A DNA stretch of 32,000 bases from Pyrodictium occultum (GTDB taxonomy: Archaea > Thermoproteota > Thermoprotei_A > Sulfolobales > Pyrodictiaceae), in NCBI RefSeq assembly GCF_001462395.1, contig NZ_LNTB01000001.1, positions 1,290,001 to 1,322,000 of the forward strand, read 5' to 3'. Below the pieces are notes generated by a model. It saw only the letters and a program-made list of their open reading frames with translations, searched no databases and was not told the origin of the DNA. The translations under genes were made by a program, and so were the position numbers. Each line of letters opens with the position of its first letter. Position 1 is the stretch's first letter. Shown here one piece after another: positions 11,807 to 26,569 of the stretch.

Positions 11807-11839
11807 GGGGGTGCCAGGCAGGGGGAGAGGGGGGAGGGG
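11807..11839 (+). other. G-quadruplex-type G-run tract in a divergent intergenic region
   Basis: The tract reads GGGGG-tgccaggca-GGGGG-aga-GGGGGG-a-GGGG, lying between the ATPase start (11671, minus) and the 11904 ORF. Confidence 0.4.
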
Positions 11840-11903
11840 AGGCCGCCGGGGCCCCGGCGCGAGCAGCGAGTTTCTCAGCCAGGCTAGCGAGCAGGTCCAG
11901 CCG

Positions 11904-12413
11904 GTGCACGGCCAGGGCTTCTTCTACGTGGGCTACCGCTACATAGCCTACTACCTCGTCTTCGACTACATAGACCCCCTCGGCTACTACGACGCCGTGC
12001 TGAGGGACGAGAGGCTCTACGAGGAGGAGACCACCAAGCTCTACTACAACATGCAGGAGCTGGTGGACCAGGAGGAGGTCGTGGTCAACGGGGAGAGGGT
12101 GAGGCCGAGGGTGGAGATGGTTGATATAGGGTTCCGGGGGAGCAGGAGCAGGGTCTTCATAGTCTTCGCCCTCCGGTTCCGGGCCCCGCTCCGGAGGGGC
12201 CGGAACGTCTACGAGAACAGGTACGAGCCCGAGGAGATAGAGTACAGCTACGAGGCCTACTGGGTCTTCCCGCCGGGCTCCAGGGTGCTCTCGGTCGACA
12301 TGGGCCCGGGGAGCGAGGACTGGGACATTGTCGGGGAGAGCACGCTGGCGATCTACGGCCGGCGCGGCGGCCGCACCGGGGGCTATGAGAGGATAGAGTT
12401 CCAGCTCCCCTAG
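11904..12413 (+). CDS. Hypothetical protein (about 170 aa, Tyr/Glu-rich)
   Basis: From GTG 11904 the translation is protein-like (GFFYVGYRYIAYYLVFDYIDPLGYYD...YERIEFQLP). The upstream part of the track ORF (11649-11903) is a Pro/Gly/Arg shadow that overlaps the ATPase start. Confidence 0.55.
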   Translation: MHGQGFFYVGYRYIAYYLVFDYIDPLGYYDAVLRDERLYEEETTKLYYNMQELVDQEEVVVNGERVRPRVEMVDIGFRGSRSRVFIVFALRFRAPLRRGRNVYENRYEPEEIEYSYEAYWVFPPGSRVLSVDMGPGSEDWDIVGESTLAIYGRRGGRTGGYERIEFQLP

Positions 12414-13258
12414 CCCCCGGCCTCCACGTAGACCCTAACCTCCCTCGGCACCAGCCTGCCCGCTCTCCGGAGCGCCTCGGCCCCGAGGAGGGCCCCACCG
12501 CCGTCATCCATGTAGTATGCCTCGAGCCTCCCGGCGCCCGGGTCGGCGTAGACGTAGAGGGTGCCCCCACCGCCCCTGCACACCACGGCGACCCTCGTGT
12601 GGAGGGCCAGCGCGTCGTCAACGATATCCATGCAGGGCTTATCCCCCGCCCTTACCTCCACCGCCCTCCCCCTGGAGGAGAGCGCTGCAAGAGCGAGGAC
12701 ATTGAACGTGTCCGAGAGCCTCAGCCCCCTTACACGCAGCATCTCCATGAGCTCCTCTAGGTCCTCCTCCCCCGCAGCCTCCACGGCCTCCCCGGGGCCT
12801 GCCGCGGGCCCCGCCTCCTGCTCCGCCGGCCGCGCGGCGGCCTCCCCGGGGGCGGGCTGGGGGCCGCCGGCCCCCTCTCCACGCCCGACCCCCGCGAGAA
12901 CGGCCCGGAGCCTCTCCAGGCCCCCGGGCACGACGGCCTCCGGCCTCTCCTCGGCATCCACTGCCACCTGGTGCTCGGTCAGCTCTATAATCTCCACCAC
13001 GCCCCGCCTATCATCCGCGCGCCTGGCCAGGAGCTCTAGGCACTCCTCTCCAGCGGCCACGGCGCCGCCCGGGGCGGCGGCTATGCACGCCAGCAGGCTA
13101 GGCGAGGCCTCCAGGTAGACCTGGAGCCCCTCTGGCGTGTAGTAGACGAGCCTCAGCCCCTCTTTCCCGAGCCCGCCGAGGGCCTCCGCGATGGCTTCCC
13201 TCAGCGTGCTGGGCCCGAGCTGTATGAATCCCCTGGTCCTCCCTCTCGAGACGAACAT
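12410..13258 (-). CDS. Hypothetical two-domain protein with Ala/Pro/Glu/Gly-rich linker; C-terminal PATAN/DUF4388-like module (by eye)
   Basis: 282 aa with an ATG start. The linker is GEGAGGPQPAPGEAAARPAEQEAGPAAGPGEAVEAAGEE. The C-terminus, VVCRGGGGTLYVYADPGAGRLEAYYMDDGGGALLGAEALRRAGRL, resembles the DUF4388 core. Confidence 0.65.
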   Translation of the reverse strand: MFVSRGRTRGFIQLGPSTLREAIAEALGGLGKEGLRLVYYTPEGLQVYLEASPSLLACIAAAPGGAVAAGEECLELLARRADDRRGVVEIIELTEHQVAVDAEERPEAVVPGGLERLRAVLAGVGRGEGAGGPQPAPGEAAARPAEQEAGPAAGPGEAVEAAGEEDLEELMEMLRVRGLRLSDTFNVLALAALSSRGRAVEVRAGDKPCMDIVDDALALHTRVAVVCRGGGGTLYVYADPGAGRLEAYYMDDGGGALLGAEALRRAGRLVPREVRVYVEAGG

Positions 13259-13426: not shown

Positions 13427-13864
13427 CTAGTGCACCACCTCGACGCCCAGGATCTCGCTCACCCTGCCAGAGCGCTCTATGATGGCCGTGTCGAAGGTAG
13501 CTATGGAGAGGCAGCCGAGCGACAGCGCGGCCAGGAGGTGGAGCAGGCTGCCAAGCCTAAGCCGGATGAGCCCCCCGTAGAGCTGGGCCTCCCGCACAAT
13601 TCTGTTGTAGTCCGGGTCCCTTACCTCGGCCCCCGCGCGGCGTATAGCGTAGTCTGCTAGCGCGTAAACCCCCTCAAGGCCCAGGCCGGGCCTCCTGGAG
13701 GCGATTAGCGCGACAAGCTCCGCCCGGGCCAGGTGGGAGGATACGAGGGCCCTGCCACCCCTCCGGAACTCCTCAAGCAGCTCCAGGGCGCGCTCGCGGA
13801 AAGCACCGTGCTCCTGGGCTAAGGCGAGCAGGAAGGTTGTGTCAAGGTAGATGCAGTCCCTCAA
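13427..13864 (-). CDS. vapC: PIN-domain ribonuclease (VapC-like toxin)
   Basis: IYLDTTFLLAL (first Asp), SSHLARAELV (Glu), ATFDTAIIE (distal Asp). 145 aa. A small upstream ORF sits 9 nt away. Confidence 0.8.
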   Translation of the reverse strand: MRDCIYLDTTFLLALAQEHGAFRERALELLEEFRRGGRALVSSHLARAELVALIASRRPGLGLEGVYALADYAIRRAGAEVRDPDYNRIVREAQLYGGLIRLRLGSLLHLLAALSLGCLSIATFDTAIIERSGRVSEILGVEVVH

Positions 13865-13873
13865 GTGGGGTAG

Positions 13874-14122
13874 TCACCCTCTCTCCCGCTCAGCGGCAGC
13901 CTCCAGGGGCTTGGGGGGCTCGACCGGGGGCCCGCCCTCCCTCATGTAGCGCTCCACGAGCCTCCTCGACTCCTCGAGCGCCCTGACAACGTCTACCAGG
14001 TGGACGGCGCCTGAGACCGCTATAATCCTCTCCGCGTGCTCCCGGCTACCCGCTACCCCGTGCTCGACGAGCCTGAGCGCAAGCCTCCGTATAAGCCGTT
14101 GAAGCCCATCGCCGCCGGCCAT
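13874..14122 (-). CDS. Putative cognate antitoxin (VapB position), fold not recognised
   Basis: An 82-aa ORF immediately upstream of the PIN gene on the same strand. I see no clear RHH or AbrB motif. Confidence 0.5.
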   Translation of the reverse strand: MAGGDGLQRLIRRLALRLVEHGVAGSREHAERIIAVSGAVHLVDVVRALEESRRLVERYMREGGPPVEPPKPLEAAAERERG

Positions 14123-14148: not shown

Positions 14149-15003
14149 CTAGCTGAGCAGCAGCGCGAACACCGTGGCCAGGGGGACTATCCCGGCCAGG
14201 GCGGCTGCCGTCATGTCGGCGCCCAGCAGGTAGGCTGACGCGAAGTAGATGACTGCTACCGAGGAGCCTATAATCACCTTGAGCATGGTCTTAAGCCTTC
14301 TCAGAGAGTTGGGGCCAGCGGTGATGGGGGCTGCCGCGGCCCTCTCAGCCTCTGCGGGGGCTGCAGCCTCTTCGGCCACCTTCTCCCCTACAGAGGGCTC
14401 CGCAGCGGCTTTCACAGCCTCCACCCGTGACACCGAGAGGCTGAGCATGGTGCCGCAGTTGGGGCAGGGCTTCCTGTTGAGCACGTGGCCGCAGAAGGGG
14501 CAGACGGGCTGTGTAAAGGGTGTAGTGTGCCCGCAGCTAGGGCACGTGGCTGTGTAGACGTCGAGCACTACCCCGCAGGAGGGGCACCGGAGGGGTTTGC
14601 CCTCCACAAGCCTGCGGACCGGGTCGAGGAGGGAGGACACCCCCGGGTACTCGCCGAGCGCTATGAACGTGAAGCCCCCTCCCACGTCCGCCACGAGGAC
14701 AGCTCTGCCCTTGTACTCGCCGAGCGCTACCCTCGCTGCTATCTCGCCCCCGGGGATACGCTGGCGGAACGCCTGGAGGTAGGCCGAGGCAATAGCCGCC
14801 AGCTCGTCCGCAGCCGCCTCGTAGTCCGGGTTCCTAGCGTTGACGGCGTAGGTGAAGCCCTCGTACGCGGCCACAGTGACATCTATGCCGTCGACGGAGG
14901 AGGCCAACGCTATAAGCCTTGTGAGAACCTCCTCCGGCGACTCCGCTTTGGCCCTCTCCTGCGCTGGCACGGACAAGGAGCCCGGCTCCCTAGCTTGGTG
15001 CAC
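14149..15003 (-). CDS. Roadblock/LC7-like domain + double zinc ribbon + C-terminal membrane anchor
   Basis: Roadblock-like segment: EEVLTRLIALASSVDGIDVTVAAYEGFTYAV...GRAVLVADVGGGFTFIALGE. Zinc ribbons: CPSCG...CPSCG and CPFCG...CPNCG. The C-terminus is hydrophobic (LKVIIGSSVAVIYFASAYLL...IVPLATVFALLL). The start is uncertain (GTG 15003 or downstream GTG 14970). Confidence 0.75.
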   Translation of the reverse strand: MHQAREPGSLSVPAQERAKAESPEEVLTRLIALASSVDGIDVTVAAYEGFTYAVNARNPDYEAAADELAAIASAYLQAFRQRIPGGEIAARVALGEYKGRAVLVADVGGGFTFIALGEYPGVSSLLDPVRRLVEGKPLRCPSCGVVLDVYTATCPSCGHTTPFTQPVCPFCGHVLNRKPCPNCGTMLSLSVSRVEAVKAAAEPSVGEKVAEEAAAPAEAERAAAAPITAGPNSLRRLKTMLKVIIGSSVAVIYFASAYLLGADMTAAALAGIVPLATVFALLLS

Positions 15004-15013
15004 ATGCCTTGGC

Positions 15014-15023
15014 TTTTTAAATT
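15014..15023. promoter_or_regulatory. AT-rich TATA-like element in a divergent intergenic region
   Basis: TTTTTAAATT lies between the minus-strand Roadblock gene and the plus-strand secreted-protein gene. A second element, TAAAATA, lies at 15107-15113. Confidence 0.4.
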
Positions 15024-15218
15024 GCTTAGCCCCGGCAATGGGCTAGTCCCACGCCTCCACAGCCAGAACCATGGTAGCCCCGTCAATTCAGCCACACAGT
15101 TAATCGTAAAATACATGTTGCCGTGGGCCGCCGCTTAGAAACGCGGCTGCAGCGCCGCCAGAGGGGTGGCCCCGAGATGCCCCAGAGACCGCTTACAGCC
15201 GGGAACGGCGGCTCAGGA

Positions 15219-15731
15219 ATGCGGCTCCGGCCCTTCGCCGTCCTGGCCGCGCTGGCTGCCCTGGCCTCTCTGGCGGCGCTTGCAAGCATGCTCTCCCCCG
15301 ACAAGCCCGGGCCCAGCGTGCTGCTGACAACAGTCGTCCAGCCCTCGGGAGGGGTGCTAGTAGACGTCCGGCCCAGCGTCCGCCTCCCGGGCGCAGCCCA
15401 GAGCGCCAGGGTGGATAGGTGGCTCACGCTCCTCTGCCGGAACAGCAGCACGGGCACAGTGGGCCTACGGGTGCAGCTCGCCGACAGGGACGTCGTGGAG
15501 GCCAGGCTTGACGGGCTTAGCATCGTCCTTAAGGGGCCCCGGGGAGAGAGGCTTGGCGTGCTAGACGCCCTTCACCCGGCCCTGGATGTAAACATCTCCT
15601 GCGGCCCGGGCGGCCTAGCCTGGGTGGACGCCCTCGTGGAGTACAGGCTCCGGGGTAGCCCGGGCGACGGGGGCGAGGTGCCGGTGGTACTGGCTGTTAG
15701 CGTGTACAAGGCCCGGGAGCCCGGGGAGTAG
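15219..15731 (+). CDS. Secreted/anchored hypothetical protein, distant paralog of the CanA/TasA-like proteins at 22947 and 26060
   Basis: Signal-like N-terminus MRLRPFAVLAALAALASLAALASMLSP. The block order (GLRVQLADRDVVEARLDGLSIVL...LDALHPALDV...VEYRLRG...VPVVLAVSV) parallels KIRATLANAEQLKKYFDYLEITI...LEKPSAVIVLD...YYEVKEG...MPVIFNFQV. Alternative starts are 15123 and 15177. Confidence 0.65.
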   Translation: MRLRPFAVLAALAALASLAALASMLSPDKPGPSVLLTTVVQPSGGVLVDVRPSVRLPGAAQSARVDRWLTLLCRNSSTGTVGLRVQLADRDVVEARLDGLSIVLKGPRGERLGVLDALHPALDVNISCGPGGLAWVDALVEYRLRGSPGDGGEVPVVLAVSVYKAREPGE

Positions 15732-15794
15732 GCGGCCCAGGCGCGCCGGCGCTCCCGCAGGCCTCGCTAGCCCCATACCGGATGATTAACAAGG

Positions 15795-15803
15795 TTAATA
15801 AGG
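15795..15803 (+). promoter_or_regulatory. TATA-box-like element upstream of the 15886 gene
   Basis: TTAATAAGG sits within the AT-rich patch gatgattaacaaggttaataagg. Confidence 0.4.
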
Positions 15804-15885
15804 AGAATGCGCGGGGACGCGTGGGGGAAGGTCCCAGCAGGCCCGCTGCAGGGGCCGCTAAAGCCCTGGGGAGCGTTGACGGGCC

Positions 15886-17391
15886 TTGCCGACAGGCTCC
15901 GTGACGCCTGGCCCGCTGCTAGGCGGCGGCCCGGGCGAGCCTCTAGTGGTCCCCCTCGACGCGGAGAGCATACACTCGCTCATAAGCGACTTCAAGCGTG
16001 TGCTCTCCAGGATAGAACTTGTGGAGGAGGTCGGCGACGGGTACGTCGTTCTCCGTGTCCCCCGGCGCTTCGGCATCCTGAGGCTCGGCTCCAGGCCTAT
16101 GCGGCTGGACATGCACGTCTATAGGCTCGAGAACGCGCTGGTGGTCCTCCTGGGCCGCGGCGCCGACTCCCTGGTCCTGGTGGTAAGTATAGCTGATGTG
16201 GGCGAGGGCGTGCACATAGTTGTCAGCGGCGGTGGCAGCGGCAGGCTATCCCCGGCGGCGGGTAGCCTGGTTAGGGGCGTGAGGGAGGCTATAGCGGGTG
16301 TAGTCGAGGAGGCCTGGCCCACGGTGAGCCTCTCCGGCGCCGACGACGAGCTGGCCGCTGCGGGCGTGCAGGACGCGGCGCTGGTGTTCTATGACAGCTT
16401 CACCCCCGTGAAGAACGTGCTCGTCGAGGCGGCGTACCGTGTCATAGCCGCCCTGGGCCCCGGCGAGTACCTGGCGGAGATACAGGGTATGCTCCACGAG
16501 TACTACTACCTCGCCCGCCTGGTCATCCGCGGCCGCAGCGTGACCGGCGTCTACGCCGAGATGGACGGGCACAGCGTCCGGGGCGAGGACGCGCTGAAGA
16601 CCGCGTGGAAGCCCCCAAGCCACCGCGTCCGCCTACTCGCCTGGGCCCTCGGAGGCCAGCGCCATAGGGTGAGGGTCAACGCCCCCCAGCCGGTCTACGA
16701 GGAGGGGCGGCACGCGGTCTACAGGCTGTGGCCCGGCGGGCGCCCCGAGTACGGCGGGCTGACAGTCTCCACGTACATCGTAGGCGACGGCTACGAGTAC
16801 GCCGTGGTGGACCCGGCGGGGCCCGCGGAGTGGAGCCAGGCTGTACGCGGCCTCGTCGGCGACATGGAGCAGCTGCGCCTCATAGTGGCCGGGGATGCGA
16901 GCGCATCCACCTACCCCCTGCTTAGGGAGCTCTACGCCGCCTCCCCCGCCCAGGTGCTGGCCCCGCCCTACGCCTGGGCCCAGCTAGCAGGCCTCCTAGA
17001 CCAGCCGGACCGCGTGTCGGCCGTACCCCTAACCGGGGGCCGCGTCAGGCTGGGGCGGAGCGAGCTACACGTAATACCGGCCAGCTGCTGCGGCGGCATG
17101 CTGTCCCTCTACGACCAGGCCTCGAGGACGCTCTTCACAGGCCCCGTGCTGGGCTTCCTGCTTCCACCCGGCCTGCCCTACGCCGGGGACCCCGTGCTCC
17201 GGCGTGCCCTCCGCGCCTACCTGCGGAGCACGCTCACGCCCCAGGCCCTGGGCCGCTGGCTGAAGACGGTCCAGGGCCTGGAGGTTGAGAGGCTGGCCCC
17301 GCGCTACGGCCCCCTCGTTGAAGGAGTGGAGCGTGTAAAGTCGCTGCTCGGCGAGGCGGCGGAGCTCGTGGCGGAGGGTGAGGCGGAGTGA
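15886..17391 (+). CDS. Multidomain hypothetical: N-terminal domain paralogous to that of the 20104 gene, central PATAN/DUF4388-like module, C-terminal degenerate metallo-beta-lactamase-fold (flavodiiron/ODP-like) domain
   Basis: The central segment LARLVIRGRSVTGVYAEMDGHSVRGEDALKTAW resembles the DUF4388 core. The C-terminal blocks YAVVDPAGP...LRLIVAGDASASTYPLL...LHVIPASCCGGMLSLYDQASRTLFTGPVLG...LAPRYGPL follow MBL block order, but HxHxDH is replaced. The start is uncertain (TTG 15886, GTG 15901 or GTG 15943). Confidence 0.7.
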   Translation: MPTGSVTPGPLLGGGPGEPLVVPLDAESIHSLISDFKRVLSRIELVEEVGDGYVVLRVPRRFGILRLGSRPMRLDMHVYRLENALVVLLGRGADSLVLVVSIADVGEGVHIVVSGGGSGRLSPAAGSLVRGVREAIAGVVEEAWPTVSLSGADDELAAAGVQDAALVFYDSFTPVKNVLVEAAYRVIAALGPGEYLAEIQGMLHEYYYLARLVIRGRSVTGVYAEMDGHSVRGEDALKTAWKPPSHRVRLLAWALGGQRHRVRVNAPQPVYEEGRHAVYRLWPGGRPEYGGLTVSTYIVGDGYEYAVVDPAGPAEWSQAVRGLVGDMEQLRLIVAGDASASTYPLLRELYAASPAQVLAPPYAWAQLAGLLDQPDRVSAVPLTGGRVRLGRSELHVIPASCCGGMLSLYDQASRTLFTGPVLGFLLPPGLPYAGDPVLRRALRAYLRSTLTPQALGRWLKTVQGLEVERLAPRYGPLVEGVERVKSLLGEAAELVAEGEAE

Positions 17392-17966
17392 AGGGCCCGT
17401 ACCTTGACCTCCGGGGATACCGTGGCTTCATCCCCTACAGGGAGCTGGAGAGGAGCATGGAGGGTGTGAGGGAGCTGCGGCTCGCGGTAGACCCCGAGGC
17501 GGTGCCCCTCGTGGAGGCGTGGGCCCGGCTCCAGGGGCTCCAGGCGAGCCTGGCGGAGGACGGTACCCTGCGGCTGGCCAGGAGAGGTGACAAGCAGGGC
17601 GGCGCCAAGGAGAAGGTGGAGCGGGAGGCTGCTGCCCCGCCGCTCTGGGTCGACCATGGCTCCTGGGACAGCGAGCTCTCGAAGCGCCTATCTGATGCGG
17701 GCTACATAGTCAACACCGTCATCCAGGCCCCCGTCCTCTACCGGGGCCACCCCTCCGGCTTCAACTACGATAGGCTCCGGGGCCGCTCGGCCCTGCTCCG
17801 TGTAACCATGCCAGACAGCGACTACTTTCTGGCCGTTCGCGGCGGCAGGGTGGTGGCGGCCGCCCAGCTGGGGAAGCCCCTGAGCCCCCGCCAGGCGGAG
17901 ACGCTGCTGGCCACGCTCCAGTCCAGCTCGGAGGCCCTCCTAACGGTCTACAATACATCCGTCTAG
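17388..17966 (+). CDS. Hypothetical: Cys-less TusA/SirA-like N-terminal domain + PATAN/DUF4388-like C-terminal module (by eye)
   Basis: The GTG start overlaps the upstream stop (GTGA). The N-terminus, LDLRGYRGFIPYRELERSMEGVRELRLAVDPEAVPLVEAWARLQG, parallels TusA LDxRGxxCPxP...D. The C-terminus has DYFLAVRGGRVVAAAQLGKPLSPRQAETLLATL. Confidence 0.65.
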   Translation: MKGPYLDLRGYRGFIPYRELERSMEGVRELRLAVDPEAVPLVEAWARLQGLQASLAEDGTLRLARRGDKQGGAKEKVEREAAAPPLWVDHGSWDSELSKRLSDAGYIVNTVIQAPVLYRGHPSGFNYDRLRGRSALLRVTMPDSDYFLAVRGGRVVAAAQLGKPLSPRQAETLLATLQSSSEALLTVYNTSV

Positions 17967-18069
17967 CGTGACGGCACGGAGCCCCTAGGCGCCTCCAGCT
18001 GCCTCCGCAGCCCCCCGGGCTGCCCGTAGGGGCCTCTCCCCGGCTCCAGGGCTTCTAGTGGACATAGGC

Positions 18070-18075
18070 TTTTAT
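18070..18075 (+). promoter_or_regulatory. TATA box giving a leaderless-type transcript for the beta-propeller gene
   Basis: TTTTAT is centred about 26-27 nt upstream of ATG 18099. Confidence 0.6.
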
Positions 18076-18098
18076 CCTACGGAACTTCCGCCTGCTGC

Positions 18099-19955
18099 AT
18101 GGTGACGCTGGTGGCCCTCGCCAGGACGCTCCTGCTGCTCGCCATCCTGGCCGCGGCGCTCTATCTCCTCAAGCCCGTCCACGCCGCGGAGGCCGGGTCT
18201 AGCACCCCCCAGCCCTCGTGGAGCGTCATCCTGGGATACAGCGTCACCAGGCTAGCCTGGAACACCTCTAGCGACCACTTGTTAGTGGGCACTAGCGGCG
18301 GCGCCGTCCTGCTCGACCGGTCCGGCCACAAGGTGTGGGGGCTGCTGCCCAAGGAGCCGGTCTACGACGTGGCGTTCTCCCCCGACGGGAGGCTTGTGGC
18401 AGTGGCCGCTGGGAGGATATGGCACTACGTATACGTGCTCGACGCTGCCACCGGGAGGGAGGCCGCGAGGATATTCAGCATATGGGGCGACCTGGCGAGC
18501 GTCTGCTGGGTCTCCACCGGCTTCCTCGTCGCGGGGGAGTCGGGGAGGCCGAGGCTCCACCTCTACAAGCTGGTCCAGGGGCCGACGGGGTCCCTGGAGC
18601 CGCGCAGCCTGGCGGTGATAAGCCTAGGGGATGGGGACTATGGCGGCGTGGCCTCCATAGCCTGCATACCCGGGAAGGAGCAGGTGGTTGTAGGCATGCG
18701 CAACGGCTACATAGCCCTCGTCTCCCTCATTTCCGGCAAGCCCGTCTGGGTGTCGCCCAGCCTCGGGGGGCAGCTGGCCGGCATGGCTCTCGGCGGCGAT
18801 GTTGTGGCGGCAGCCGTCATCGACAAGAGCCACGGTGTCTCAAGGCTCTACCTGCTATCGCTCGCTAGAGGGGAGGTTATGGCCTCCTATAGCGTCGAGA
18901 CGCTTATCACCTCGATAGCGGTCACGGGCAACTACCTCATAGCGGGTGATCTAGGCGGCGACCTCTACCTCTTCCAGTACGGCCGAGGAGGCCTCGAGCT
19001 GGTAGACATAGACAGGGTCTCGCTTGCCCCGATAACAGCTATCGCGGTCAGCCCCGACGGCTCCCAGCTGGCCATAGGCGTGGAGAAGGGTGTCGTAGCC
19101 TCGTTCAACGCCGCCGACTTCATCTACGAGAGGCTTGCCAAGATAGTGTCTGGGGTGAGCACCGTCTACACCCTGATCAGCGTAGCCATTGATGATAGGC
19201 CCGTGGTGTTGTTCAGGACTGTCATAGACCTGCCGTCCGTGCTTTCGCTGAACGTGGGCAGCTATAATGTATCCTTCGACGCGGTCCTGGAGCAGGTTAG
19301 GCTGCCCTGCAACGTCGTGCTTGAGGTGAACGTGGTGGAGCTGAAGGAAATGGACACCAATATGACTGTAGCAACTATGCTGCTCGACAAGCCTCTAGAG
19401 ATATCCTGCCACGGCATAAAATACGGCTACCAGGAGTCTAATGTGAGCGTCCATGGCCGGGCGGTGCTAGCCCTCTCCGAGACCAGTAGCCTGCGGCTCC
19501 TCGGCGACAGGGAGCATGTACTGGTTAGGCTGCAGGCAGCGCCCTACATCGCGGTGTACTACGGGGGCCGGCCCGGCAGGCTGGCCTCCGAGATAAGGGT
19601 GGATAACCTGGTCCCGGCCACAGTCATACTAGCCAAGTACTTCAGCCGCATCCAGGGCCTAGTGGCGCCGGCCCCCGGAGCAGCTACAAGGACGGTAACA
19701 ACCACTGTCACCACTACCGTGACGAGGACGGTGACCACGACCCCGGCTGGAGCCTGCGGGGGTGCAGCCACGCCTCCGGCCAGCTCGGCCTCCAGGGGGC
19801 CCGCGGCCAGCGCGGCCACCAGCGCCGCCGGGGGAGCCTGGTCCGGCAGCAGGCTGGCCGCGGCAGGGATCGTGGCGGCCCTGACGGCTATAGGCCTTCT
19901 CATGCTCGTAGCGGGTCATAGGAGGAGGGGCGGCAGGAGAGGCGGCGCCGCTTAG
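18099..19955 (+). CDS. Surface beta-propeller (WD40/YVTN-like) protein with signal peptide, Thr-rich stalk and C-terminal transmembrane anchor
   Basis: N-terminal signal LLLLAILAAALYLLKPVHA. Repeats such as VYDVAFSPDGRLVAVAAG and ITAIAVSPDGSQLAIG. Sequons NTS, NVS, NMT, NVS. Stalk TRTVTTTVTTTVTRTVTTT. TM helix LAAAGIVAALTAIGLLMLVAG followed by the basic tail HRRRGGRRGG. Confidence 0.85.
   Translation: MVTLVALARTLLLLAILAAALYLLKPVHAAEAGSSTPQPSWSVILGYSVTRLAWNTSSDHLLVGTSGGAVLLDRSGHKVWGLLPKEPVYDVAFSPDGRLVAVAAGRIWHYVYVLDAATGREAARIFSIWGDLASVCWVSTGFLVAGESGRPRLHLYKLVQGPTGSLEPRSLAVISLGDGDYGGVASIACIPGKEQVVVGMRNGYIALVSLISGKPVWVSPSLGGQLAGMALGGDVVAAAVIDKSHGVSRLYLLSLARGEVMASYSVETLITSIAVTGNYLIAGDLGGDLYLFQYGRGGLELVDIDRVSLAPITAIAVSPDGSQLAIGVEKGVVASFNAADFIYERLAKIVSGVSTVYTLISVAIDDRPVVLFRTVIDLPSVLSLNVGSYNVSFDAVLEQVRLPCNVVLEVNVVELKEMDTNMTVATMLLDKPLEISCHGIKYGYQESNVSVHGRAVLALSETSSLRLLGDREHVLVRLQAAPYIAVYYGGRPGRLASEIRVDNLVPATVILAKYFSRIQGLVAPAPGAATRTVTTTVTTTVTRTVTTTPAGACGGAATPPASSASRGPAASAATSAAGGAWSGSRLAAAGIVAALTAIGLLMLVAGHRRRGGRRGGAA
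19686..19742 (+). repeat. Thr/Val codon low-complexity tract (stalk/linker) inside the beta-propeller gene
   Basis: aca agg acg gta aca acc act gtc acc act acc gtg acg agg acg gtg acc acg acc encodes TRTVTTTVTTTVTRTVTTT. Confidence 0.8.
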
Positions 19956-20103
19956 GCTTTTCGGAGGCCGGTCCGTGTCCGCCCCTACATTCCTCTACGC
20001 GCCTGGCAGCGCCATGGCTCGCTGCGGCGGCCCCGCGCCATGGGCGACGCGTATTTAGTGTCGGCACGGCCCTGGAGGGATTGAGAGGGCGGGGTTATAG
20101 ACC

Positions 20104-20889
20104 TTGGCCCCTGTTAAGAGGAGCGCGGTGCTCGACGTAGCCGCCCCCTGCGACCGGGTTATACGGCTGCTATCCTCCCGCGACCCCTCCTCCTTCCTGG
20201 CGGGCGCGGCCAGGCTCAGCGGCCAGGGAGAGAAGCGCGGCGTGAAGGTGCTTACCTTCGCCTCCGCCAGGTACGGCAGCCTGCGGGTGGAGGCCGAGGA
20301 GAGGGTCGAGGCTGACCGCCTGGAGCTGCTCCTCCGGGGCGACCTCCACGGCTCCGTGCGGGTTGTCGGGGTCAGCAAGGGCAGCGGGTGCCGCCTCTAC
20401 CTCGAGGCTGAGGGGGAGGGTAAGCTCGTCGAGGAGTACGGCGGTGACGCCCTCTCGCGCGTAATAAACCGTATAATGGTCACGCTGGTCAGCGTGTTCC
20501 CCGCCACTCTGCAGCCCCGGGTCTCCGGGGGCAGGCTCGGGGACTACTTCATCGAGCTCCTGGAGCTCATAAACCTCGCCCAGGGGGGTAGCGCGAGGAT
20601 CCAGGGCAGGCTACGCAGTATAGCAGTGGACCTCAGCCGCGGGGTCGTGATAAACTCGGAGGGGCTGGGCGAGGAGGAGGCTAGCACGATAGCGAGGGCC
20701 CTCTCCGACGCCTACTCTAGGCTTGTTGAGGCCCTGGGTATTCTCGGTGATGGCGAGGTTTCACGCCTCGTAGTATCGGGTGACAAAAGCCTTATAGTGG
20801 CCAATGTAGCGGGTAAAATATCTGTGGCCACCGTGCTGCAGCAGGGTGGCGGAGAGGAGGCCGGCGCCTCCGGCTCCGGGGCGTCGTAG
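20104..20889 (+). CDS. Hypothetical: N-terminal domain paralogous to the 15886 N-terminus (possibly SRPBCC-like) + C-terminal Roadblock/LC7-like domain
   Basis: The C-terminus, IAVDLSRGVVINSEGLGEEEASTIARALSDAYSRLVEALGILGDGEVSRLVVSGDKSLIVANVAGKISVATVL, fits the Roadblock pattern. The N-terminus, VLDVAAPCDRVIRLL...LRVEAEERVEADRLELLLRGDLHGSVRVVGVS, parallels the 15886 product. TTG start. Confidence 0.7.
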   Translation: MAPVKRSAVLDVAAPCDRVIRLLSSRDPSSFLAGAARLSGQGEKRGVKVLTFASARYGSLRVEAEERVEADRLELLLRGDLHGSVRVVGVSKGSGCRLYLEAEGEGKLVEEYGGDALSRVINRIMVTLVSVFPATLQPRVSGGRLGDYFIELLELINLAQGGSARIQGRLRSIAVDLSRGVVINSEGLGEEEASTIARALSDAYSRLVEALGILGDGEVSRLVVSGDKSLIVANVAGKISVATVLQQGGGEEAGASGSGAS

Positions 20890-20895
20890 AGGCTG

Positions 20896-21723
20896 ATGCC
20901 CCAGTCTCCCAGCCGCCCTTGGAGGCTGATGAGCTTGTCAAAGCCGTTTGTTATGAGGCTGCTGCGTAGGCGCCCGCTCAGCTACACTGTCCTAGTCCTC
21001 TTCATACTAGACCGCTCCCTGAGCATGATGGAGCCCAAGACCTATGACTACCGCGGCAAGTGGTTCCACCTAGTGGACCTGGTTGAGGCTCTCCTACGCA
21101 GGCTGGGCCGCAGCAGGATGGCCCCCGCCTTCCGGGTCGGCTTCGTCTGGTTCAGCGACGACGTCGAGGTGGTTGAGTGGAACGGCGAGGTCTACTTCCC
21201 CGTCGCCCCGAGGAACGTGGCGCTCGACGTGTTCCGTAAGAGTGCGGAGAGGAACCGGCCCTACGGCATGACCGCCATGGCTGACGCGCTGGAGGCGGCG
21301 GCGTCCGTGGTCGAGCGGTATGTGGACCAGTTGACGCTGCCGCCGGAGAAGTATGGGACTCTCTTCCTCTTCACCGACGGCAGGGAGACCAGGAGAACGG
21401 TGGACGACGTGGTGGTGGCAGCGGAGAAGATAACCATGGAGCTGGCGGAGAGGATGAAGAAGCTCAACGAGAGGAACCGTATAGGCCTCGCAACCATAGC
21501 CCTCGGCCAGGACGCCGACAGGGAGACGCTGAGGGATATAGCGAGCTTCCTGCGTGAGGCGCAGCGCCGTGTCCTCGAGGACCGGGGGCTCCTGGACCTG
21601 GTGGACCCGCCCTACCACGAGAAGATGTTCATAGACGCGCCCGCCGATGACCGTATAACGCGCGAGTGGGAGGAGGCTGTGAGGAGGTTCGTGGAGAGGC
21701 TGAGCGAGACGGCTACGGTCTAG
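20896..21723 (+). CDS. von Willebrand factor type A (vWA) domain protein with intact MIDAS
   Basis: MIDAS elements are LDRSLSM (DxSxS), GMTAMADAL (Thr) and LFLFTDGRE (Asp). There is no signal peptide. It starts 6 nt after the upstream gene. Confidence 0.85.
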   Translation: MPQSPSRPWRLMSLSKPFVMRLLRRRPLSYTVLVLFILDRSLSMMEPKTYDYRGKWFHLVDLVEALLRRLGRSRMAPAFRVGFVWFSDDVEVVEWNGEVYFPVAPRNVALDVFRKSAERNRPYGMTAMADALEAAASVVERYVDQLTLPPEKYGTLFLFTDGRETRRTVDDVVVAAEKITMELAERMKKLNERNRIGLATIALGQDADRETLRDIASFLREAQRRVLEDRGLLDLVDPPYHEKMFIDAPADDRITREWEEAVRRFVERLSETATV

Positions 21724-21733
21724 GCCTTCTAGG

Positions 21734-22789
21734 GTGTCAGCCCCCATGGCTAGGCTCAGCCTGGTTTTCCACAGCGGCTTCGTGGTGTCCACTGATAGCG
21801 ATGAGTGGGAGCTGCTCGATAGCGGCGGCGAGGCCGACATATACCGGGCTAGGCTCCGGGGCGGGCAGAGCTACATAGTCAAGCTGTATACGCCCAAGTA
21901 CACGGGGCTCGCCCGGCCGGTGGAGCGCATCGCTGAGATGCTTAGGAGGCTCACTAGGCTCCGCAGGAGGTGTGGGGGGTCGATACCCGAGAGCCTCTGG
22001 GCCCGCGGCCTCCCCGTAGCCGTGGGAGCCCTCGAGGACAGGGCCGTGCTAGTGTTCCGGGAGGTGGAGGACTTCACTACGGTATCCGAGCTGGTGAACA
22101 ACCCGGAGCTGCTGGGGGAGTACCTCGAGAGGCACAGCCTGGAGGAGAGGAGGCGGTTCGCCCGCGAGGTGCTGCGGGGCCTCGCCTGCCTAGACGCGGC
22201 CGACATAGTCCATGTCGACGCTACGACGCCCAACGCGGCCTACGGCAGGGTCGGGGAGACTAGAGGGGTATTCCTCTACGACTACGAGACGGCGGGCATT
22301 ATAGGCTCCGAGGACTACCCCCTCACCGTTCTCCCCGCCCGCGACGCCAACCTCCTCCCCGTGGAGGTGCTGGCCGAGGCCGGGGTTGAGATACAGCCCC
22401 CGGACCCGGGCGAGCTGCCCATACCCCTCCAGCCCTCCCGGCTCCCCAGGCCCATCCTCTCCTGGATAGCCTGGACCCCGACCTGGTACGGCCTGCAGCT
22501 GGTGGCGCTGGTCTACAGCGGCCTCAGTCCCTTCCACGGCCTCCCCGTGCTGAGCAGCAGCTACTGGCTAGAGATAGTGGAGGCCGAGGCCGCGCAGGGC
22601 TACCCGGGCGGCTGGCCCCCGCTGAGCATGGTGGACCAGGGCTACCTGGACCAGACCGAGTACCTGGAGCTGAGCAAGCTGTGGAGAAGCCTTGGCGAGG
22701 ACGTGGTGGAGGCGATGTACCACGTCTTCATCGTCGACCCGGGCGAGCGGCGGGGCATGCCGAGCTACCCACTCTCGTCAATATTCTAG
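21734..22789 (+). CDS. Eukaryotic-like Ser/Thr protein kinase-like protein
   Basis: Gly-rich loop LLDSGGEADIY. IVKLY carries the catalytic Lys. Catalytic loop IVHVDATTPNAAY (HxDxxxxN). LYDYETAG sits in the DFG position. YGLQLVALVYSGLSPF resembles subdomain IX. It starts 10 nt after the vWA gene; alternative start ATG 21746. Confidence 0.8.
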   Translation: MSAPMARLSLVFHSGFVVSTDSDEWELLDSGGEADIYRARLRGGQSYIVKLYTPKYTGLARPVERIAEMLRRLTRLRRRCGGSIPESLWARGLPVAVGALEDRAVLVFREVEDFTTVSELVNNPELLGEYLERHSLEERRRFAREVLRGLACLDAADIVHVDATTPNAAYGRVGETRGVFLYDYETAGIIGSEDYPLTVLPARDANLLPVEVLAEAGVEIQPPDPGELPIPLQPSRLPRPILSWIAWTPTWYGLQLVALVYSGLSPFHGLPVLSSSYWLEIVEAEAAQGYPGGWPPLSMVDQGYLDQTEYLELSKLWRSLGEDVVEAMYHVFIVDPGERRGMPSYPLSSIF

Positions 22790-22946
22790 CCCCCGGGCGG
22801 CCCCGCAGCCTCTCATGGAGCTGCCGCCCCGCCCGCCAGGGGTAGAGATTAGTAGGACGGACCACAGTCAAGCCCATACTGTGGAGGGAGTCCCGCCCCG
22901 GCTGCCAATGAGGGAGGGCTGGCCGGTATAGGGGTGCCCTAGAGCC

Positions 22947-24107
22947 TTGAACCACCGCTCAGCAGCCCTCGCCCTGGCCGCCCTCGCCGCCTCGGCTGCC
23001 GCCCTCGCCCTGCTAGCAGGCTTCGCCACCACCCAGAGCCCGCTGAGCAGCTTCTACGCGGTGGGCTGCGCGCAGGCGCCCAACGAGCCCATAAGCCTCC
23101 AGCAGCTCGGCAGCATAACCATAGCCCCAGCCTCCGGGGCCGAGGGCTCTCTCGAGGAGCCCGAGTGGCTCAAGATAACAAGGCACAGTGATGTCGACTA
23201 TGTGAAGCTGGAGCTGAGCCTGGAGAACGCGGATCAGCTGCGCCGGCTCCTAGACTACCTAAGCATAGAGGTTAGGGAGGCATACCAGGTCTTCGAGGGC
23301 AACGTGACGACGGATCAGCCGTACTGTAAGAGGGCTCCTCAGGATGAGTGGCCGCACCTCTCCTGGGCCATAGACGGCCACGGGAAGGATATAGCCGAGA
23401 AGCTTAAGCACGTCCTGCGGGGCCACGTGCAGAAGGGAATAGACGTCGATGCCGCGGTGCAGGACATACTCAGCAGAGTCTCCTACGCCACCATAACCCT
23501 AGCCTACCGCAACTACACCTACAACGGCACCCTATACCTGGCCCCGGGCAACGGCACAGCAATCAACGAGACCCTCCACGAGATAGCCCGCCACCTGGTC
23601 CGGGGAAGCGGGATAGTGGTCCACACGCCCTACGCTGACGGTAGAGGCTTCCACCACGTAGTGATTGAGGCCGACACGCAGCCCCCAACACTGTTCTTCG
23701 ACTCCGCGGATTACGGCATAATAGTGGGCAACGGTACGAGCGGCCACAGGCCCGCGTCCGCTCTCAACTTCACCCTGCGGCTAGACTTCTACGATAGCTC
23801 CGGCAACTGGCTGTTCGCCATATGGTGGGACACGATCTACTACAGCTATGCCGGCGGCCGCTTTAACAACTGGGCCTCGTACGAGTATCTCAGCGTCGCC
23901 CGGCCGGTCCTCAAGCTGGGCAACGTTAGGGCCGTGCTCAGCCTGGGTAAGCCCAGCGCAGTGGTCGCTGTGGACGGGGACTCCTGGCTCTACGATGGAG
24001 GCCGGGCGGCGGTCCTGGGCGCCCGGGTGTACTACGAGGCTAGGGAGGGCGTGCTCTTCGACAGCGTGCCCCTGGTGATCAACGCCAGGGTGGTTGAGAC
24101 GGGCTAG
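22947..24107 (+). CDS. Large secreted paralog of the CanA/TasA-like filament-subunit candidate, with a sequon-rich insertion
   Basis: It shares the N-terminus AASAAALALLAGFATTQSPLSSFYAVG.AQAPNEP and the C-terminal blocks (LENADQL..LDYL, GKPSAV, YYEAREGVLFDSVPLVIN) with the 26060 product. Seven N-x-S/T sequons. TTG start. Confidence 0.75.
   Translation: MNHRSAALALAALAASAAALALLAGFATTQSPLSSFYAVGCAQAPNEPISLQQLGSITIAPASGAEGSLEEPEWLKITRHSDVDYVKLELSLENADQLRRLLDYLSIEVREAYQVFEGNVTTDQPYCKRAPQDEWPHLSWAIDGHGKDIAEKLKHVLRGHVQKGIDVDAAVQDILSRVSYATITLAYRNYTYNGTLYLAPGNGTAINETLHEIARHLVRGSGIVVHTPYADGRGFHHVVIEADTQPPTLFFDSADYGIIVGNGTSGHRPASALNFTLRLDFYDSSGNWLFAIWWDTIYYSYAGGRFNNWASYEYLSVARPVLKLGNVRAVLSLGKPSAVVAVDGDSWLYDGGRAAVLGARVYYEAREGVLFDSVPLVINARVVETG
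22982..23089 (+). repeat. Copy A of a 108-nt near-identical dispersed repeat (5' coding segment of the paralogs)
   Basis: By my alignment it matches 26090-26197 with 3 mismatches (ctcgCcgcc vs ctcgTcgcc; gggCTgc vs gggTGgc). Confidence 0.9.
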
Positions 24108-24119
24108 CCTCCTGGGCGC

Positions 24120-24614
24120 CTAGCCTCTCTCCACCCCCGCGTCCAGGGTCTCCGTCCTCGCCGGCCTGAGAATGCATCCACGCAGAAGCTCCGGGAGCTT
24201 CTCGAGGACCACCCGCGCCCCGGGGGTTAGGGGCAGCTGGAGGGCCTCCCGGTAGGGGAAGAACCTGGCATCCGCGGCGTCGCTCCCGCCCCGGGGCTCG
24301 CCGCCCCGGTACCTCATCAGCACGTCCATTATGACGTAGTGCTCGGGGCCCACGGGGCCCATGGCCAGCAGCTCGTGGATATGCACCACCCCCAGGGGCT
24401 CTGCGTCCACCCCGGTCTCCTCCATGAGCTCCCTCCGGGCCGCCTCCAGCACGGTCTCCCCGGGCTCCAGGTGGCCCCCGGGGAAGCTCCAGAGCCCAGG
24501 GAAGGGCGGGTAGCGGCGCTTCACGAGGAGCACCCTGAGCCCCGCCCCCTGCCCGAGGGCCACTATCGCGCCCACGCCCACCACTGGGCCGTGGAGCCCA
24601 CCCCTCCTGGACAA
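24120..24614 (-). CDS. Nudix hydrolase
   Basis: Nudix box [24 protein letters not shown] (GX5EX7REUXEEXGU). 164 aa. Confidence 0.9.
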
Positions 24615-24696
24615 GCCCGGCCGGCACCCCAGGGGTGTGTAAACCGGGGGCCCAGGGGCTCTTAGACCGTGGCCCCTCGACGCCCCTGGGGCGCCA

Positions 24697-24936
24697 CTAC
24701 TCCTCGAGGGGCTCGGCCCCCAGCACCTCCCTGGCCACCTCGTCCACCTCCCCGCCGCGGGCCTCCCTGAACCTCCTCGAGAGCAGCTCCTGGGCCTGCC
24801 TGTAGGCCCTCTCCAGCCTCTCGAAGGGTATGTATATCAGCTCCCCGCCGCCCGTCTCCAGGAAGACCACGAAGCGCCTACGGGGATAGTCGACCGCCAC
24901 GTGGAGGCACGGCGGCTCCTCGCACTCGTAGCTCAT
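24697..24936 (-). CDS. Small hypothetical protein (79 aa)
   Basis: ATG start about 37-42 nt from a shared TATAAA. Protein-like composition. I recognise no family. Confidence 0.5.
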
Positions 24937-24972
24937 CCGGCCTCCCGGGGGGCTCCCCCGGGGCCCCGGCGC

Positions 24973-24978
24973 TATAAA
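24973..24978. promoter_or_regulatory. Bidirectional TATA box (TATAAA / TTTATA) between divergent genes
   Basis: It is the only AT-rich hexamer in the 62-nt gap between 24936 (minus start) and 24999 (plus start). Confidence 0.5.
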
Positions 24979-24998
24979 CCGGGGGCCCGGGGGCGCCG

Positions 24999-25922
24999 GT
25001 GTGGGGGTGCCATTTGCCCGTCCTGCGGGTCAGGGCTGCGGGCCTAGAGCTGGAGCACCCGGTTATGAATGCAAGCGGCATCCTGGGCTCCAGGCCTGAG
25101 GCGCTGGAGAGGCTCGCGCGCGCCGGCTCCGCGGCGCTGGTCACGAAGTCCTTCACCCGCGAGCCGCGGAGCGGCTACCCGACGCCGATAGCCGTGCCCA
25201 TCCCCCAGGGCCTGCTCAACGCCGTGGGGCTCTCGAACCCGGGGCTCGAGGCGCTCCCAGGGCTCCTGGAGAGGATCCGGGGGCTGGGCAAGCCGGTGAT
25301 CGTCAGCATAGCTGGCTCCACCCCGGAGGAGTTCGCCGAGATAGCGGCCGCTGCCGAGGAGGCGGGCGCGGCGGCGGTGGAGCTGAACCTCAGCTGCCCC
25401 CACGCGAGGGGAAGGGGCCTCGAGATAGGCATGGACCCCGTCGCGGTCAGGGAGGTGGCCGGCGCCGCCGCCTCCACGGTGACCATACCGGTGCTCGCCA
25501 AGCTCGGCGTGGTGGATAGGCTCGTGGAGGTTGCCGGCAAGGCGCTCGAGGCAGGGGCGAGGGGCCTGGTGCTCATAAACACCATACGGGCCATGGCTAT
25601 CGACGTCTACGCCATGAAGCCCGTCCTGGGTCACGGCGTGGGCGGGCTCTCGGGCCCCGCCATCCACCCCGTGGCGGTGCGCGCGGTCTACGAGGTCTAC
25701 CGGGAGTACAGGACCGACATAATAGGGGTGGGCGGGGTCGAGGACTGGCGCACAGCGGCGGAGATGATCCTAGCCGGCGCCCGGGCGGTACAGGTTGGCA
25801 CCGCGGTAATAACCAGAGGCGAGACAGTCATAAGCGAGATAGTACAAGGGCTCCAGAAGTACCTCCAGGAAGTAGGCGCCACGAGCATCCAAGACGTTGT
25901 GGGAGCAGCCCACAAAAACTAG
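24999..25922 (+). CDS. pyrD: Dihydroorotate dehydrogenase catalytic subunit (class 1)
   Basis: Motifs LELEHPVMNASGILG, VTKSFT, NAVGLSNPG, IVSIAG, ELNLSCPH, GGLSGPAIHP and GVGGV. The start is uncertain (GTG 24999 or TTG 25014). Confidence 0.9.
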   Translation: MWGCHLPVLRVRAAGLELEHPVMNASGILGSRPEALERLARAGSAALVTKSFTREPRSGYPTPIAVPIPQGLLNAVGLSNPGLEALPGLLERIRGLGKPVIVSIAGSTPEEFAEIAAAAEEAGAAAVELNLSCPHARGRGLEIGMDPVAVREVAGAAASTVTIPVLAKLGVVDRLVEVAGKALEAGARGLVLINTIRAMAIDVYAMKPVLGHGVGGLSGPAIHPVAVRAVYEVYREYRTDIIGVGGVEDWRTAAEMILAGARAVQVGTAVITRGETVISEIVQGLQKYLQEVGATSIQDVVGAAHKN

Positions 25923-26000
25923 CACAGCAAAAAGAAGAGCAAGCATAACAGGCATATTAACACGCGTAGCATATTACCAGAATGGGTCATGATTAGATAG

Positions 26001-26009
26001 TTTTTATTT
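26001..26009 (+). promoter_or_regulatory. Strong TATA box in a ~130-nt AT-rich promoter region for the small CanA/TasA-like gene
   Basis: TTTTTATTT lies within the conspicuously AT-rich stretch 25923-26035. GGTGAGG Shine-Dalgarno at 26050-26056 precedes ATG 26060. Confidence 0.65.
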
Positions 26010-26059
26010 CCCCGAAGTCGCCCTCATTTACATGACCCGTGAAGGGTCTGGTGAGGCGT

Positions 26060-26569
26060 ATGAGGTACACGAGCCTGGCTCTAGCCGGCCTCGTCGCCTC
26101 GGCTGCCGCCCTCGCCCTGCTAGCAGGCTTCGCCACCACCCAGAGCCCGCTGAGCAGCTTCTACGCGGTGGGTGGCGCGCAGGCGCCCAACGAGCCCGTC
26201 ACCATAACCAGCAACCTCAGCGGCATATCGCCCGCCGCCGGCGCGCAGGGCGATGCCGACATAGGCACTGTGACGGTGAAGGCCGGCAGCAACGTGAACG
26301 TTGTGAAGATAAGGGCCACCCTCGCCAACGCCGAGCAGCTGAAGAAGTACTTCGACTACCTGGAGATAACCATAGCCAACGACAACGGCGAGGCTAAGGC
26401 CATGGTGAGCCTGGAGAAGCCCAGCGCCGTCATAGTGCTCGACCAGAACGACATAGGCGGTGACAACCAGGCGACGCTGAGCTTCCACGCCTACTACGAG
26501 GTCAAGGAGGGCATGCTGTTCGACAGCATGCCGGTGATCTTCAACTTCCAGGTGCTCAGCACCAGCTAA
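26060..26569 (+). CDS. Small secreted CanA/TasA-like filament-subunit candidate (169 aa precursor)
   Basis: The signal/anchor MRYTSLALAGLVASAAALALLAGFATTQSPLSSFYAVG is followed by a beta-rich body ending YYEVKEGMLFDSMPVIFNFQVLSTS. One sequon (NLS). Strong promoter and SD. The track start GTG 26039 is also possible. Confidence 0.85.
   Translation: MRYTSLALAGLVASAAALALLAGFATTQSPLSSFYAVGGAQAPNEPVTITSNLSGISPAAGAQGDADIGTVTVKAGSNVNVVKIRATLANAEQLKKYFDYLEITIANDNGEAKAMVSLEKPSAVIVLDQNDIGGDNQATLSFHAYYEVKEGMLFDSMPVIFNFQVLSTS
26090..26197 (+). repeat. Copy B of the 108-nt near-identical dispersed repeat
   Basis: Matches 22982-23089 (see copy A). Confidence 0.9.

Follow-up and report, generated by a model that had tools for sequence, protein, structure and literature searches.

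The window discussed here is a stretch of 32,000 nucleotides from Pyrodictium occultum (contig NZ_LNTB01000001.1, positions 1,290,001 to 1,322,000). Between about 11.6 and 26.6 kb it carries genes for a kinase-like protein, a von Willebrand factor A (vWA) protein and possible Roadblock-domain proteins, interleaved with genes for secreted relatives of the cannula (Can) subunits of Pyrodictium abyssi. A first-pass annotation, made from the letters of the sequence, had taken ten of these genes for a single signalling module that controls or templates an extracellular filament or matrix. The central observation is that three of them, g06, g07 and g08 (Table 1), are adjacent and on the same strand in 15 of the 15 Pyrodictiaceae loci compared, with the g06 orthologue directly upstream of the vWA gene each time. 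A conserved neighborhood thus exists around these three genes, but the ten do not form one unit.

All ten open reading frames (ORFs) are present where the first pass placed them, with coding-type codon composition (G+C at third codon positions, GC3, 0.81-0.88). Most of what the first pass described holds, but its PATAN and Roadblock calls were too confident. The list was also incomplete: it omitted u1, a conserved ninth partner of the module.

The core genes and their usual partners

Gaps of only 6-10 nt separate g06, g07 and g08. For g07, the vWA assignment and the intact metal ion-dependent adhesion site (MIDAS) of the first pass are borne out: Pfam VWA scores 31.8 bits against a cut-off of 23.8, and the MIDAS residues D26/S28/S30/T113/D148 (numbered as in P0001, a P. 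occultum protein to which g07 is 100% identical) are invariant among the orthologues. An AlphaFold2 model (predicted local distance difference test, pLDDT, 81.5) drew 444 PDB matches in Foldseek at E<=1e-3, and vWA-domain proteins make up nearly all of the top 50 listed. The annotated start is probably at 20935. Homologues number 26, every one from Pyrodictiaceae or a metagenome contig, with identities of 88% in P. abyssi, 75% in Hyperthermus butylicus and 69% in Pyrofollis japonicus.

The call of g08 as Ser/Thr-kinase-like also holds, by way of its conserved residues and its relatives. The protein itself reaches 11.3 bits against Pfam Pkinase (gathering score 31.7) and matches Bud32/TP53RK weakly. 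Its Gly-rich loop (DSGGEADIY), K50, E64/E68, H160-x-D162-x4-N167 and D183 do not vary across 11 orthologues, and two distant relatives pass family cut-offs, P0032 (E 2.5e-7 to g08) for Pkinase at 36.8 bits and P0035 for PK_Tyr_Ser-Thr. A HMMER scan of 1.84 billion representative proteins returned only 9 relatives at E<=1e-3. These motifs and matches support a kinase-like protein that looks active and belongs to a divergent, family-restricted lineage.

The N-terminal half of g06 (about residues 1-135) is probably an SRPBCC/START-like helix-grip domain, a new call that comes from an AlphaFold2 model predicted from a single sequence (pLDDT 53, low confidence; topology b-a-a-b6-a then a-b-b-a-b-b-b). 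All 25 Foldseek matches of the model at E<=1e-3 are SRPBCC, CoxG or PYL proteins, such as CoxG APE2225 and the PYL receptors, with target TM-scores of up to 0.63 obtained from this pLDDT 53 model. Pfam and PDB profile searches gave no SRPBCC match at the level of sequence. For the C-terminal half (about residues 141-250) the evidence points weakly to a Roadblock/LC7-like domain: Robl_LC7 matches 2 of 12 orthologues at E 0.0023-0.0046, and its 17.1 bits lie below the gathering score of 23. The Roadblock structure PDB 3kye is matched by g06 at E 0.48 and by a joint profile with the N-domain of g01 at E 0.087, and is the only natural full-domain match of that joint profile.

A second Roadblock domain had been proposed in g01, and here too the claim is weaker than first stated. 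Pfam finds Robl_LC7 in none of 10 g01 orthologues, and what lends the idea some weak support is that the g01 N-domain aligns colinearly, element by element, with the C-domain of g06. An all-against-all profile-profile comparison of nine module domains gave weak links only (g01 N-domain to g06 C-domain 21.7%, g03 middle domain to u1 C-domain 9.8%). The two zinc ribbons and the membrane anchor of g01 are confirmed: the Pfam DZR model gives 31.2 bits (cut-off 27.3), zinc-ribbon models match 10 of 10 orthologues, none of the eight Cys, arranged as four CxxC pairs, varies, and two hydrophobic segments occupy residues 239-284 at the C terminus.

Upstream of the core, g03 does carry the degenerate MBL domain that it had been given (Pfam ODP 33.4 bits versus 27.2; 10 of 10 orthologues, best E 2.8e-22), its HxHxDH metal motif (HxExDH in di-iron relatives) being replaced by GDASAS in Pyrodictium and by SAEADV in the others. 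Residues 94-119 of the N-domain hold an invariant D..GEGxH..V..GGxG motif, for which no known family was matched. A PATAN/DUF4388 core had also been assigned to g03 and is not supported, with Pfam finding it in 0 of 10 orthologues. A PATAN-like identity for the middle domain of g03 together with u1 was considered and dropped on DUF4388 counts of 0 of 10 orthologues each and the low profile link given above.

For g04, which always follows g03, both proposed domains are left as weak calls. DUF4388 is found in 3 of 10 orthologues (best E 0.015; 14 bits against a gathering score of 25) and TusA in 2 of 10 (best E 0.036), the two calls together spanning E 0.015-0.055, and PDB and NCBIfam searches gave nothing usable. 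The matches hint at a TusA-like N-domain without its Cys and a DUF4388/PATAN-like C-domain. A resemblance of the g04 stretch WARRRGY to Lsr2 (E ~1, chance level) was set aside.

The gene omitted from the original list, u1, belongs to no Pfam or NCBIfam family, and a PDB search gave nothing usable. Its orthologues share four invariant cysteines, two per domain, and in loci L007 and L008 the linker holds a coiled-coil insertion of about 250 amino acids. Next to it lies u0, whose identity across genera (77-87%) is higher than that of any module gene. It adjoins u1 in the window, P. abyssi, H. butylicus and L006 and lies within a few kb of it in L007; it may be a further module partner or merely a conserved neighbor. 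The module proteins showed no Walker A motif and no FHA or DNA-binding domain.

Table 1. Features of the region, in window coordinates unless a locus is named
Feature	Coordinates	Strand	Description
u0	11823-12413	+	about 195 amino acids; no family or PDB match
u1	12410-13258	-	conserved two-domain protein with variable Ala/Pro-rich linker; module member
PIN pair	13427-14122	-	PIN toxin (Pfam PIN) and small upstream partner; not part of the module
g01	14149-15003	-	possible Roadblock-like N-domain, two C4 zinc ribbons, low-complexity linker, C-terminal two-segment membrane anchor
g02	15219-15731	+	secreted, divergent Can/TasA-like; left inversion junction
g03	15886-17391	+	three domains: conserved N-domain, middle domain, metal-site-degenerate ODP/MBL domain
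g04	17388-17966	+	192 amino acids; overlaps g03 by 4 nt
g05	18099-19955	+	signal peptide, WD40-type beta-propeller, further domain, Thr-rich stalk, C-terminal transmembrane anchor
g06	20104-20889	+	two-domain cytoplasmic protein; first gene of the invariant core
g07	20896-21723	+	cytoplasmic vWA protein, intact MIDAS, conserved C-terminal helical tail
g08	21734-22789	+	protein-kinase-like; full catalytic motif set; family-specific Trp-rich C-terminal domain
g09	22947-24107	+	cannula-family; jelly-roll split by insertion of about 215 amino acids; right inversion junction
g10	26039-26569	+	CanX-type cannula subunit; AT-rich upstream region
P. abyssi Can-family genes (at least four, one inside the module)	L009 3093-3704, 6189-6719, 14841-16010, 18752-19444		

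Gene order among relatives and the Pyrodictium rearrangement

The 15 loci, compared by tblastn and profiles, are the window, 8 GTDB loci from metagenome-assembled genomes (MAGs), those of P. abyssi (L009), H. butylicus and Pyrofollis, and 3 further contigs; L001 and L076 stand for one related MAG lineage. The GTDB loci come from a pattern scan in which the first 80 candidate stretches yielded 8 confirmed loci, P. abyssi and H. butylicus not being among them, and the scan is not a census. A PP2C gene, divergently transcribed, lies immediately upstream of g06 in 11 of the 15 loci, and g03 and g04 lie upstream of the core in 11, the window included. The zinc-ribbon g01 orthologue follows the kinase gene in 9 loci and is itself followed by a u1 homologue in 8, and in L078 the set is reduced to the three core genes, PP2C and one unrelated gene. 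Flanking genes differ between genera, including H. butylicus and Pyrofollis, the neighboring PGI gene is only 58-67% identical between genomes, which are thus well diverged, and the core order spans at least four genera. That this order has been kept despite diverged genomes and different flanks indicates selection, and the adjacency of the core genes is not due to chance.

The PP2C of the relatives scores above the cut-off for PF13672 (32.4 bits), its metal-binding motifs ADGVS, TDGV and DDAT are readable, and judged by these residues it looks active. Its presence changes the argument of the first-pass annotation, which had leaned on there being no GTPase, FHA domain or phosphatase. That statement is right for the window but wrong for the phosphatase as a trait of the system; and because PP2C is part of the ancestral module, the contention that the combination matches nothing known falls. 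In L007 (7487-8455, minus strand), and in a matching 3.6-kb insert in L008, a membrane protein lies between PP2C and the g06 orthologue; it has two CxxCH haem-binding motifs and matches cytochrome c families.

The order taken as ancestral is PGI(-) / g03 g04 PP2C(-) g06 g07 g08 / g01 u1 u0(-), and that of the window is u0 u1(-) g01(-) / g02 g03 g04 g05 g06 g07 g08 / g09 ... g10 PGI(+). One inversion of the g03 to g08 block accounts for the difference, and on this comparison of gene orders the Pyrodictium arrangement is the derived one. After the inversion u1 still adjoins g01 in both Pyrodictium species, with the PIN pair in between; a homologue of that pair occurs only in L009 (65% identity). 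Within the inverted block the slot held by PP2C in 11 other loci is filled by g05, and the P. abyssi PP2C is found about 7 kb away, between two Can genes. The description of g05 as a membrane-anchored propeller on a Thr-rich stalk is upheld by Pfam propeller families and hydropathy. Its orthologues are confined, among the 15 loci, to L009, L001 and L076, and a metagenome scan with a propeller alignment gave generic WD40 proteins alone (22-30% identity) and no further instance of the module. Among the proteins of the region, the secreted ones are Pyrodictium additions only.

Three of these additions belong, with differing degrees of resemblance, to the cannula family. The third copy that the first pass had placed at 26060 is g10, which shares 60% identity along its entire length with CanX (E 4.9e-58), the subunit whose structure was determined from ex vivo cannulae of P. 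abyssi (PDB 9h8b; PMC12518558), and is likely to be the major cannula subunit. The other two had been proposed as a CanA/TasA-like secreted pair. For g09 this is direct, with residues 5-108 and 326-383 matching CanX (PDB 9h8b) at E 1.2e-37; its P. abyssi orthologue (389 amino acids, 36% identical) has the insertion as well. The insertion (about residues 109-325) holds several N-x-S/T sequons. In g09 and g10 alike a Sec signal peptide precedes the donor-strand region TTQSPLxSFYA of the N terminus, and g02 has the signal peptide and lacks the TTQSPL motif. No direct PDB sequence match was found for g02, and membership comes through profile-profile comparison: its three-member family aligned with the Can profile in hhalign at 95% (E 4e-8), and at 85% (E 6e-6) without signal peptides, which supports a divergent Can-like protein. 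Hidden Markov models of the Can and g02 families match, among the loci compared, in the window, L009 and L001 only.

A bacterial promoter and terminator scan is uninformative for an archaeon, and AT-rich boxes were mapped instead. Five lie within the 105 nt (25929-26033) upstream of g10, in a genome of about 68% G+C, against no more than one or two for any other gene of the region (15013-15024, 15782-15802, 20052-20059). The g10 upstream region is consistent with a strong archaeal promoter.

Published work on cannulae frames these genes. CanX homologues are confined to Pyrodictiaceae, P. delaneyi and the other complete genomes of the family were found to have no cannula-like genes, and in P. 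abyssi 11 of 15 Can genes lie in two clusters (PMC12518558), of which the L009 locus may be one. The same paper does not discuss signalling genes around Can genes.

Readings of the region

We read the region, at a probability of roughly 60%, as a composite, in which an old and vertically inherited signalling module has received additions in the Pyrodictium lineage. The invariant core is the SRPBCC-Roadblock protein g06, the MIDAS vWA protein g07 and the active-looking kinase g08. The ancestral module included PP2C, divergent from g06, and usually g01 and u1 downstream and g03 and g04 upstream. The Pyrodictium additions would be the inversion, g05 in the place of PP2C, the PIN pair, and the Can genes g02, g09 and g10 at the inversion junctions. 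The module appears to be cytoplasmic and tethered to the membrane, to work through Ser/Thr phosphorylation, and to be confined to Pyrodictiaceae. As it is complete without cannula genes in other genera, it predates cannulae and works without them.

How such a module might act can be sketched. The kinase and PP2C would set the phosphorylation state of the module partners, and the MIDAS site of the vWA protein could then clamp a partner depending on phosphorylation, in the way that Sulfolobus ArnB holds ArnA. The Roadblock-like domains of g06 and g01 may form a pair that anchors the complex to the membrane via g01, with the SRPBCC pocket and the ODP-like domain giving sensory input. In Pyrodictium, output may have become linked to production of a surface matrix or of cannulae.

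Several points weigh against the composite reading and the sketch that goes with it. The mechanism is one that we infer by analogy. No recognizable output domain was found in the module, and no phosphatase of any class in the window. The Roadblock, PATAN, TusA and SRPBCC calls draw on sub-threshold sequence matches and one low-confidence model (pLDDT 53). Because several MAG pairs are near-duplicates, the 15 loci amount to only about 10 lineages, and the set is a lower bound that says nothing on Pyrolobus or P. delaneyi.

The alternatives differ mainly in what they make of the genes around the core. That all ten genes form one dedicated system, in which the Roadblock, PATAN, vWA and kinase proteins control or template cannula-like filaments and the propeller, seems to us unlikely. 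It draws strength from the secreted Can-like genes in and beside the module in both Pyrodictium species, where g02 occupies a slot common to the window, L009 and L001, g09 orthologues lie downstream, and an extra Can gene of 176 amino acids sits inside the P. abyssi module; the propeller, too, took the place of PP2C inside the module, and cannula gene neighborhoods are without chaperones or dedicated peptidases (PMC12518558), which leaves regulation open. Yet the full module is found without Can or propeller genes in the fetched loci of H. butylicus, Pyrofollis japonicus and seven MAG lineages, and in L001/L076, where a g02-type gene and the propeller are both present, the 9-10 kb downstream of the kinase hold no gene of the g09 or g10 type. 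An arrangement shared between the two Pyrodictium species is weak evidence, given how closely they are related (vWA proteins 88% identical), and the Can genes stand at the inversion junctions, as insertions would. Calcium alone, moreover, is enough for CanX and CanA to polymerise in vitro (PMC12518558); the signalling module of the first-pass proposal is real, but templating of CanX-type filaments by it is unsupported. Control of cannulae in Pyrodictium is possible on the evidence of adjacency only, and a regulatory coupling to cannula or matrix production is doubtful. The more specific idea of a rewired phospho-switch, with PP2C displaced by the propeller and cannula paralogues recruited, that times cannula or matrix production with cell division is a long shot. 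At the opposite extreme, the weakness of several domain calls and the recent arrival of the Can and propeller genes could be taken to mean that unrelated hypothetical genes have come together by chance. We consider this the least credible account of all, in view of a core order common to every locus, at least four genera and different flanks, of the gaps of a few nucleotides between g06, g07 and g08, and of the overlap of g03 and g04; chance adjacency is refuted for the core and tenable only for the Can genes.

Two further readings assign the core to a known kind of system. Two Roadblock-like domains and one possible DUF4388 domain recall the GTPase switches of polarity and positioning of the MglA/MglB-PATAN kind, the Roadblock domains then acting on a small GTPase encoded elsewhere with the kinase and vWA protein as accessories, and MglB homologues and PATAN proteins are known genomic neighbors of small GTPases (PMC4316618). 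Against this, every Roadblock and PATAN match is below its family cut-off, a Walker A motif occurs in no module protein, no GTPase family is found among the called genes of the five annotated full-flank loci (L009-L011, L077 and L078), and the invariant partners are vWA, kinase and PP2C rather than an NTPase. We regard such a switch as very improbable. A conflict or anti-virus system of the kind that combines vWA, kinase and phosphatase in multicellular prokaryotes fares slightly worse still. Modules of vWA with kinase and PP2C do occur in conflict systems (PMC7159879), the Pyrodictium arrangement includes a PIN toxin pair, and the kinase gives weak PADLOC matches to MkoA and mad6. These matches, however, reflect generic kinase or propeller similarity at 13-17 bits, none of them specific; no effector domain (nuclease, protease, pore-former or NTPase) was found; and G+C across the region matches that of the rest of the window (about 62-74% throughout), so that neither composition nor content is mobile- or defense-like. 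The module occurs as a single copy whose chromosomal position does not change from genus to genus and whose identities track relatedness, and this pattern therefore indicates vertical inheritance and not the behavior of an island, in keeping with the composite reading.

Known systems and neighboring genes

Functionally, the closest known system is the Arn network of Sulfolobus acidocaldarius, in which ArnB and ArnA associate in a phosphorylation-dependent way, in loose or tight complexes under ArnC and PP2A (PMC6509490, PMC12852372, PMC5007285). Both have a cytoplasmic vWA protein, a zinc-finger-bearing partner, one or more eukaryote-type Ser/Thr kinases, a phosphatase and a host among the Thermoproteota, and a phosphorylation-dependent complex governing a surface structure may be listed as common ground. 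The differences are no less evident. An FHA domain was found in no window ORF or scanned module orthologue, and the zinc-ribbon partner has a possible Roadblock-like domain and a membrane anchor. The phosphatase is PP2C here and PP2A in Arn. Specific similarity between g07 and ArnB is missing, since a profile of 14 orthologues found TRAP and Vps24 only in the PDB at E<=0.1, and ArnB is not among the top 50 Foldseek matches. Genes for kinase, vWA protein and phosphatase are clustered here, whereas the Arn kinase genes lie outside the arnA-arnB operon, and no archaellum genes are nearby.

Bacterial vWA-STPK-FHA-PP2C operons such as DRA0331-DRA0334 of Deinococcus radiodurans (bioRxiv 10.64898/2026.01.23.701218) likewise bring vWA, kinase and PP2C together. 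The adjacency is matched in 11 of the 15 related loci, the window itself being without PP2C, and three of the four parts are common, the FHA gene being the one missing here. In its place are the SRPBCC-Roadblock, zinc-ribbon-Roadblock and ODP-like proteins and two more, with a divergent kinase and an archaeal host. In the MglA/MglB and PATAN modules (PMC4316618) the likeness is one of possible Roadblock and DUF4388-like domains in neighboring genes; it differs in the absent GTPase, in having vWA, kinase and PP2C as partners, and in the sub-threshold domain matches. The cannula-family genes have their counterparts in CanA and CanX of P. abyssi, of the TasA superfamily (PMC12518558; PDB 7uii, 9h8b). 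Of these relatives g09 and g10 are members, g09 with its insertion of about 215 amino acids, and g02, without TTQSPL, is a distant one.

An analogy from further afield concerns g06, whose low-confidence model has PYL-PP2C complexes among its Foldseek matches. The plant abscisic-acid switch consists of PYR/PYL (START) receptors, PP2C and SnRK2, so that a helix-grip protein, PP2C and a Ser/Thr kinase co-occur in both cases. The likeness is an analogy only: g06 has an extra Roadblock-like domain, and homology would go no further than fold class.

We therefore regard the module as undescribed, a new and family-restricted variant of vWA/kinase/PP2C phospho-signalling, and the Can genes as new members of a known family. 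The Arn network is almost the sole case of Ser/Thr phospho-signalling known in detail in hyperthermophilic archaea, and the module would be a second, compact and clustered example, with unusual partners (SRPBCC, Roadblock-like, zinc-ribbon and ODP-like) in place of FHA beside a vWA protein and a very divergent kinase. As an extracellular structure cannulae are unique; their subunit structure was solved only recently, and their production has had no prior account of its regulation. In each of the two Pyrodictium species that form cannulae and have been sequenced, Can genes are interleaved with the kinase module, which makes the latter a testable candidate for a regulator; the synteny also warns of a recent and perhaps incidental association.

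Genes beyond this region are of a housekeeping kind. Outside about 11.6 to 26.6 kb lie those for a molybdopterin oxidoreductase/NrfD, an aminotransferase, Thg1, QueC, an ABC-class ATPase, PGI/SIS and a hydantoinase, and within the span, at 24120-25922, those for a Nudix protein and a dihydroorotate dehydrogenase. Upstream of the region, the plus-strand ORFs at 7120-7956 and 8668-9852 look coding and are without Pfam or NCBIfam match. In L077 (1-6341), the genes directly upstream of the module form a cluster that codes, among others, for a T2SSF-like membrane platform protein and a large MG4-like one, possibly a type IV pilus-like or secretion context.

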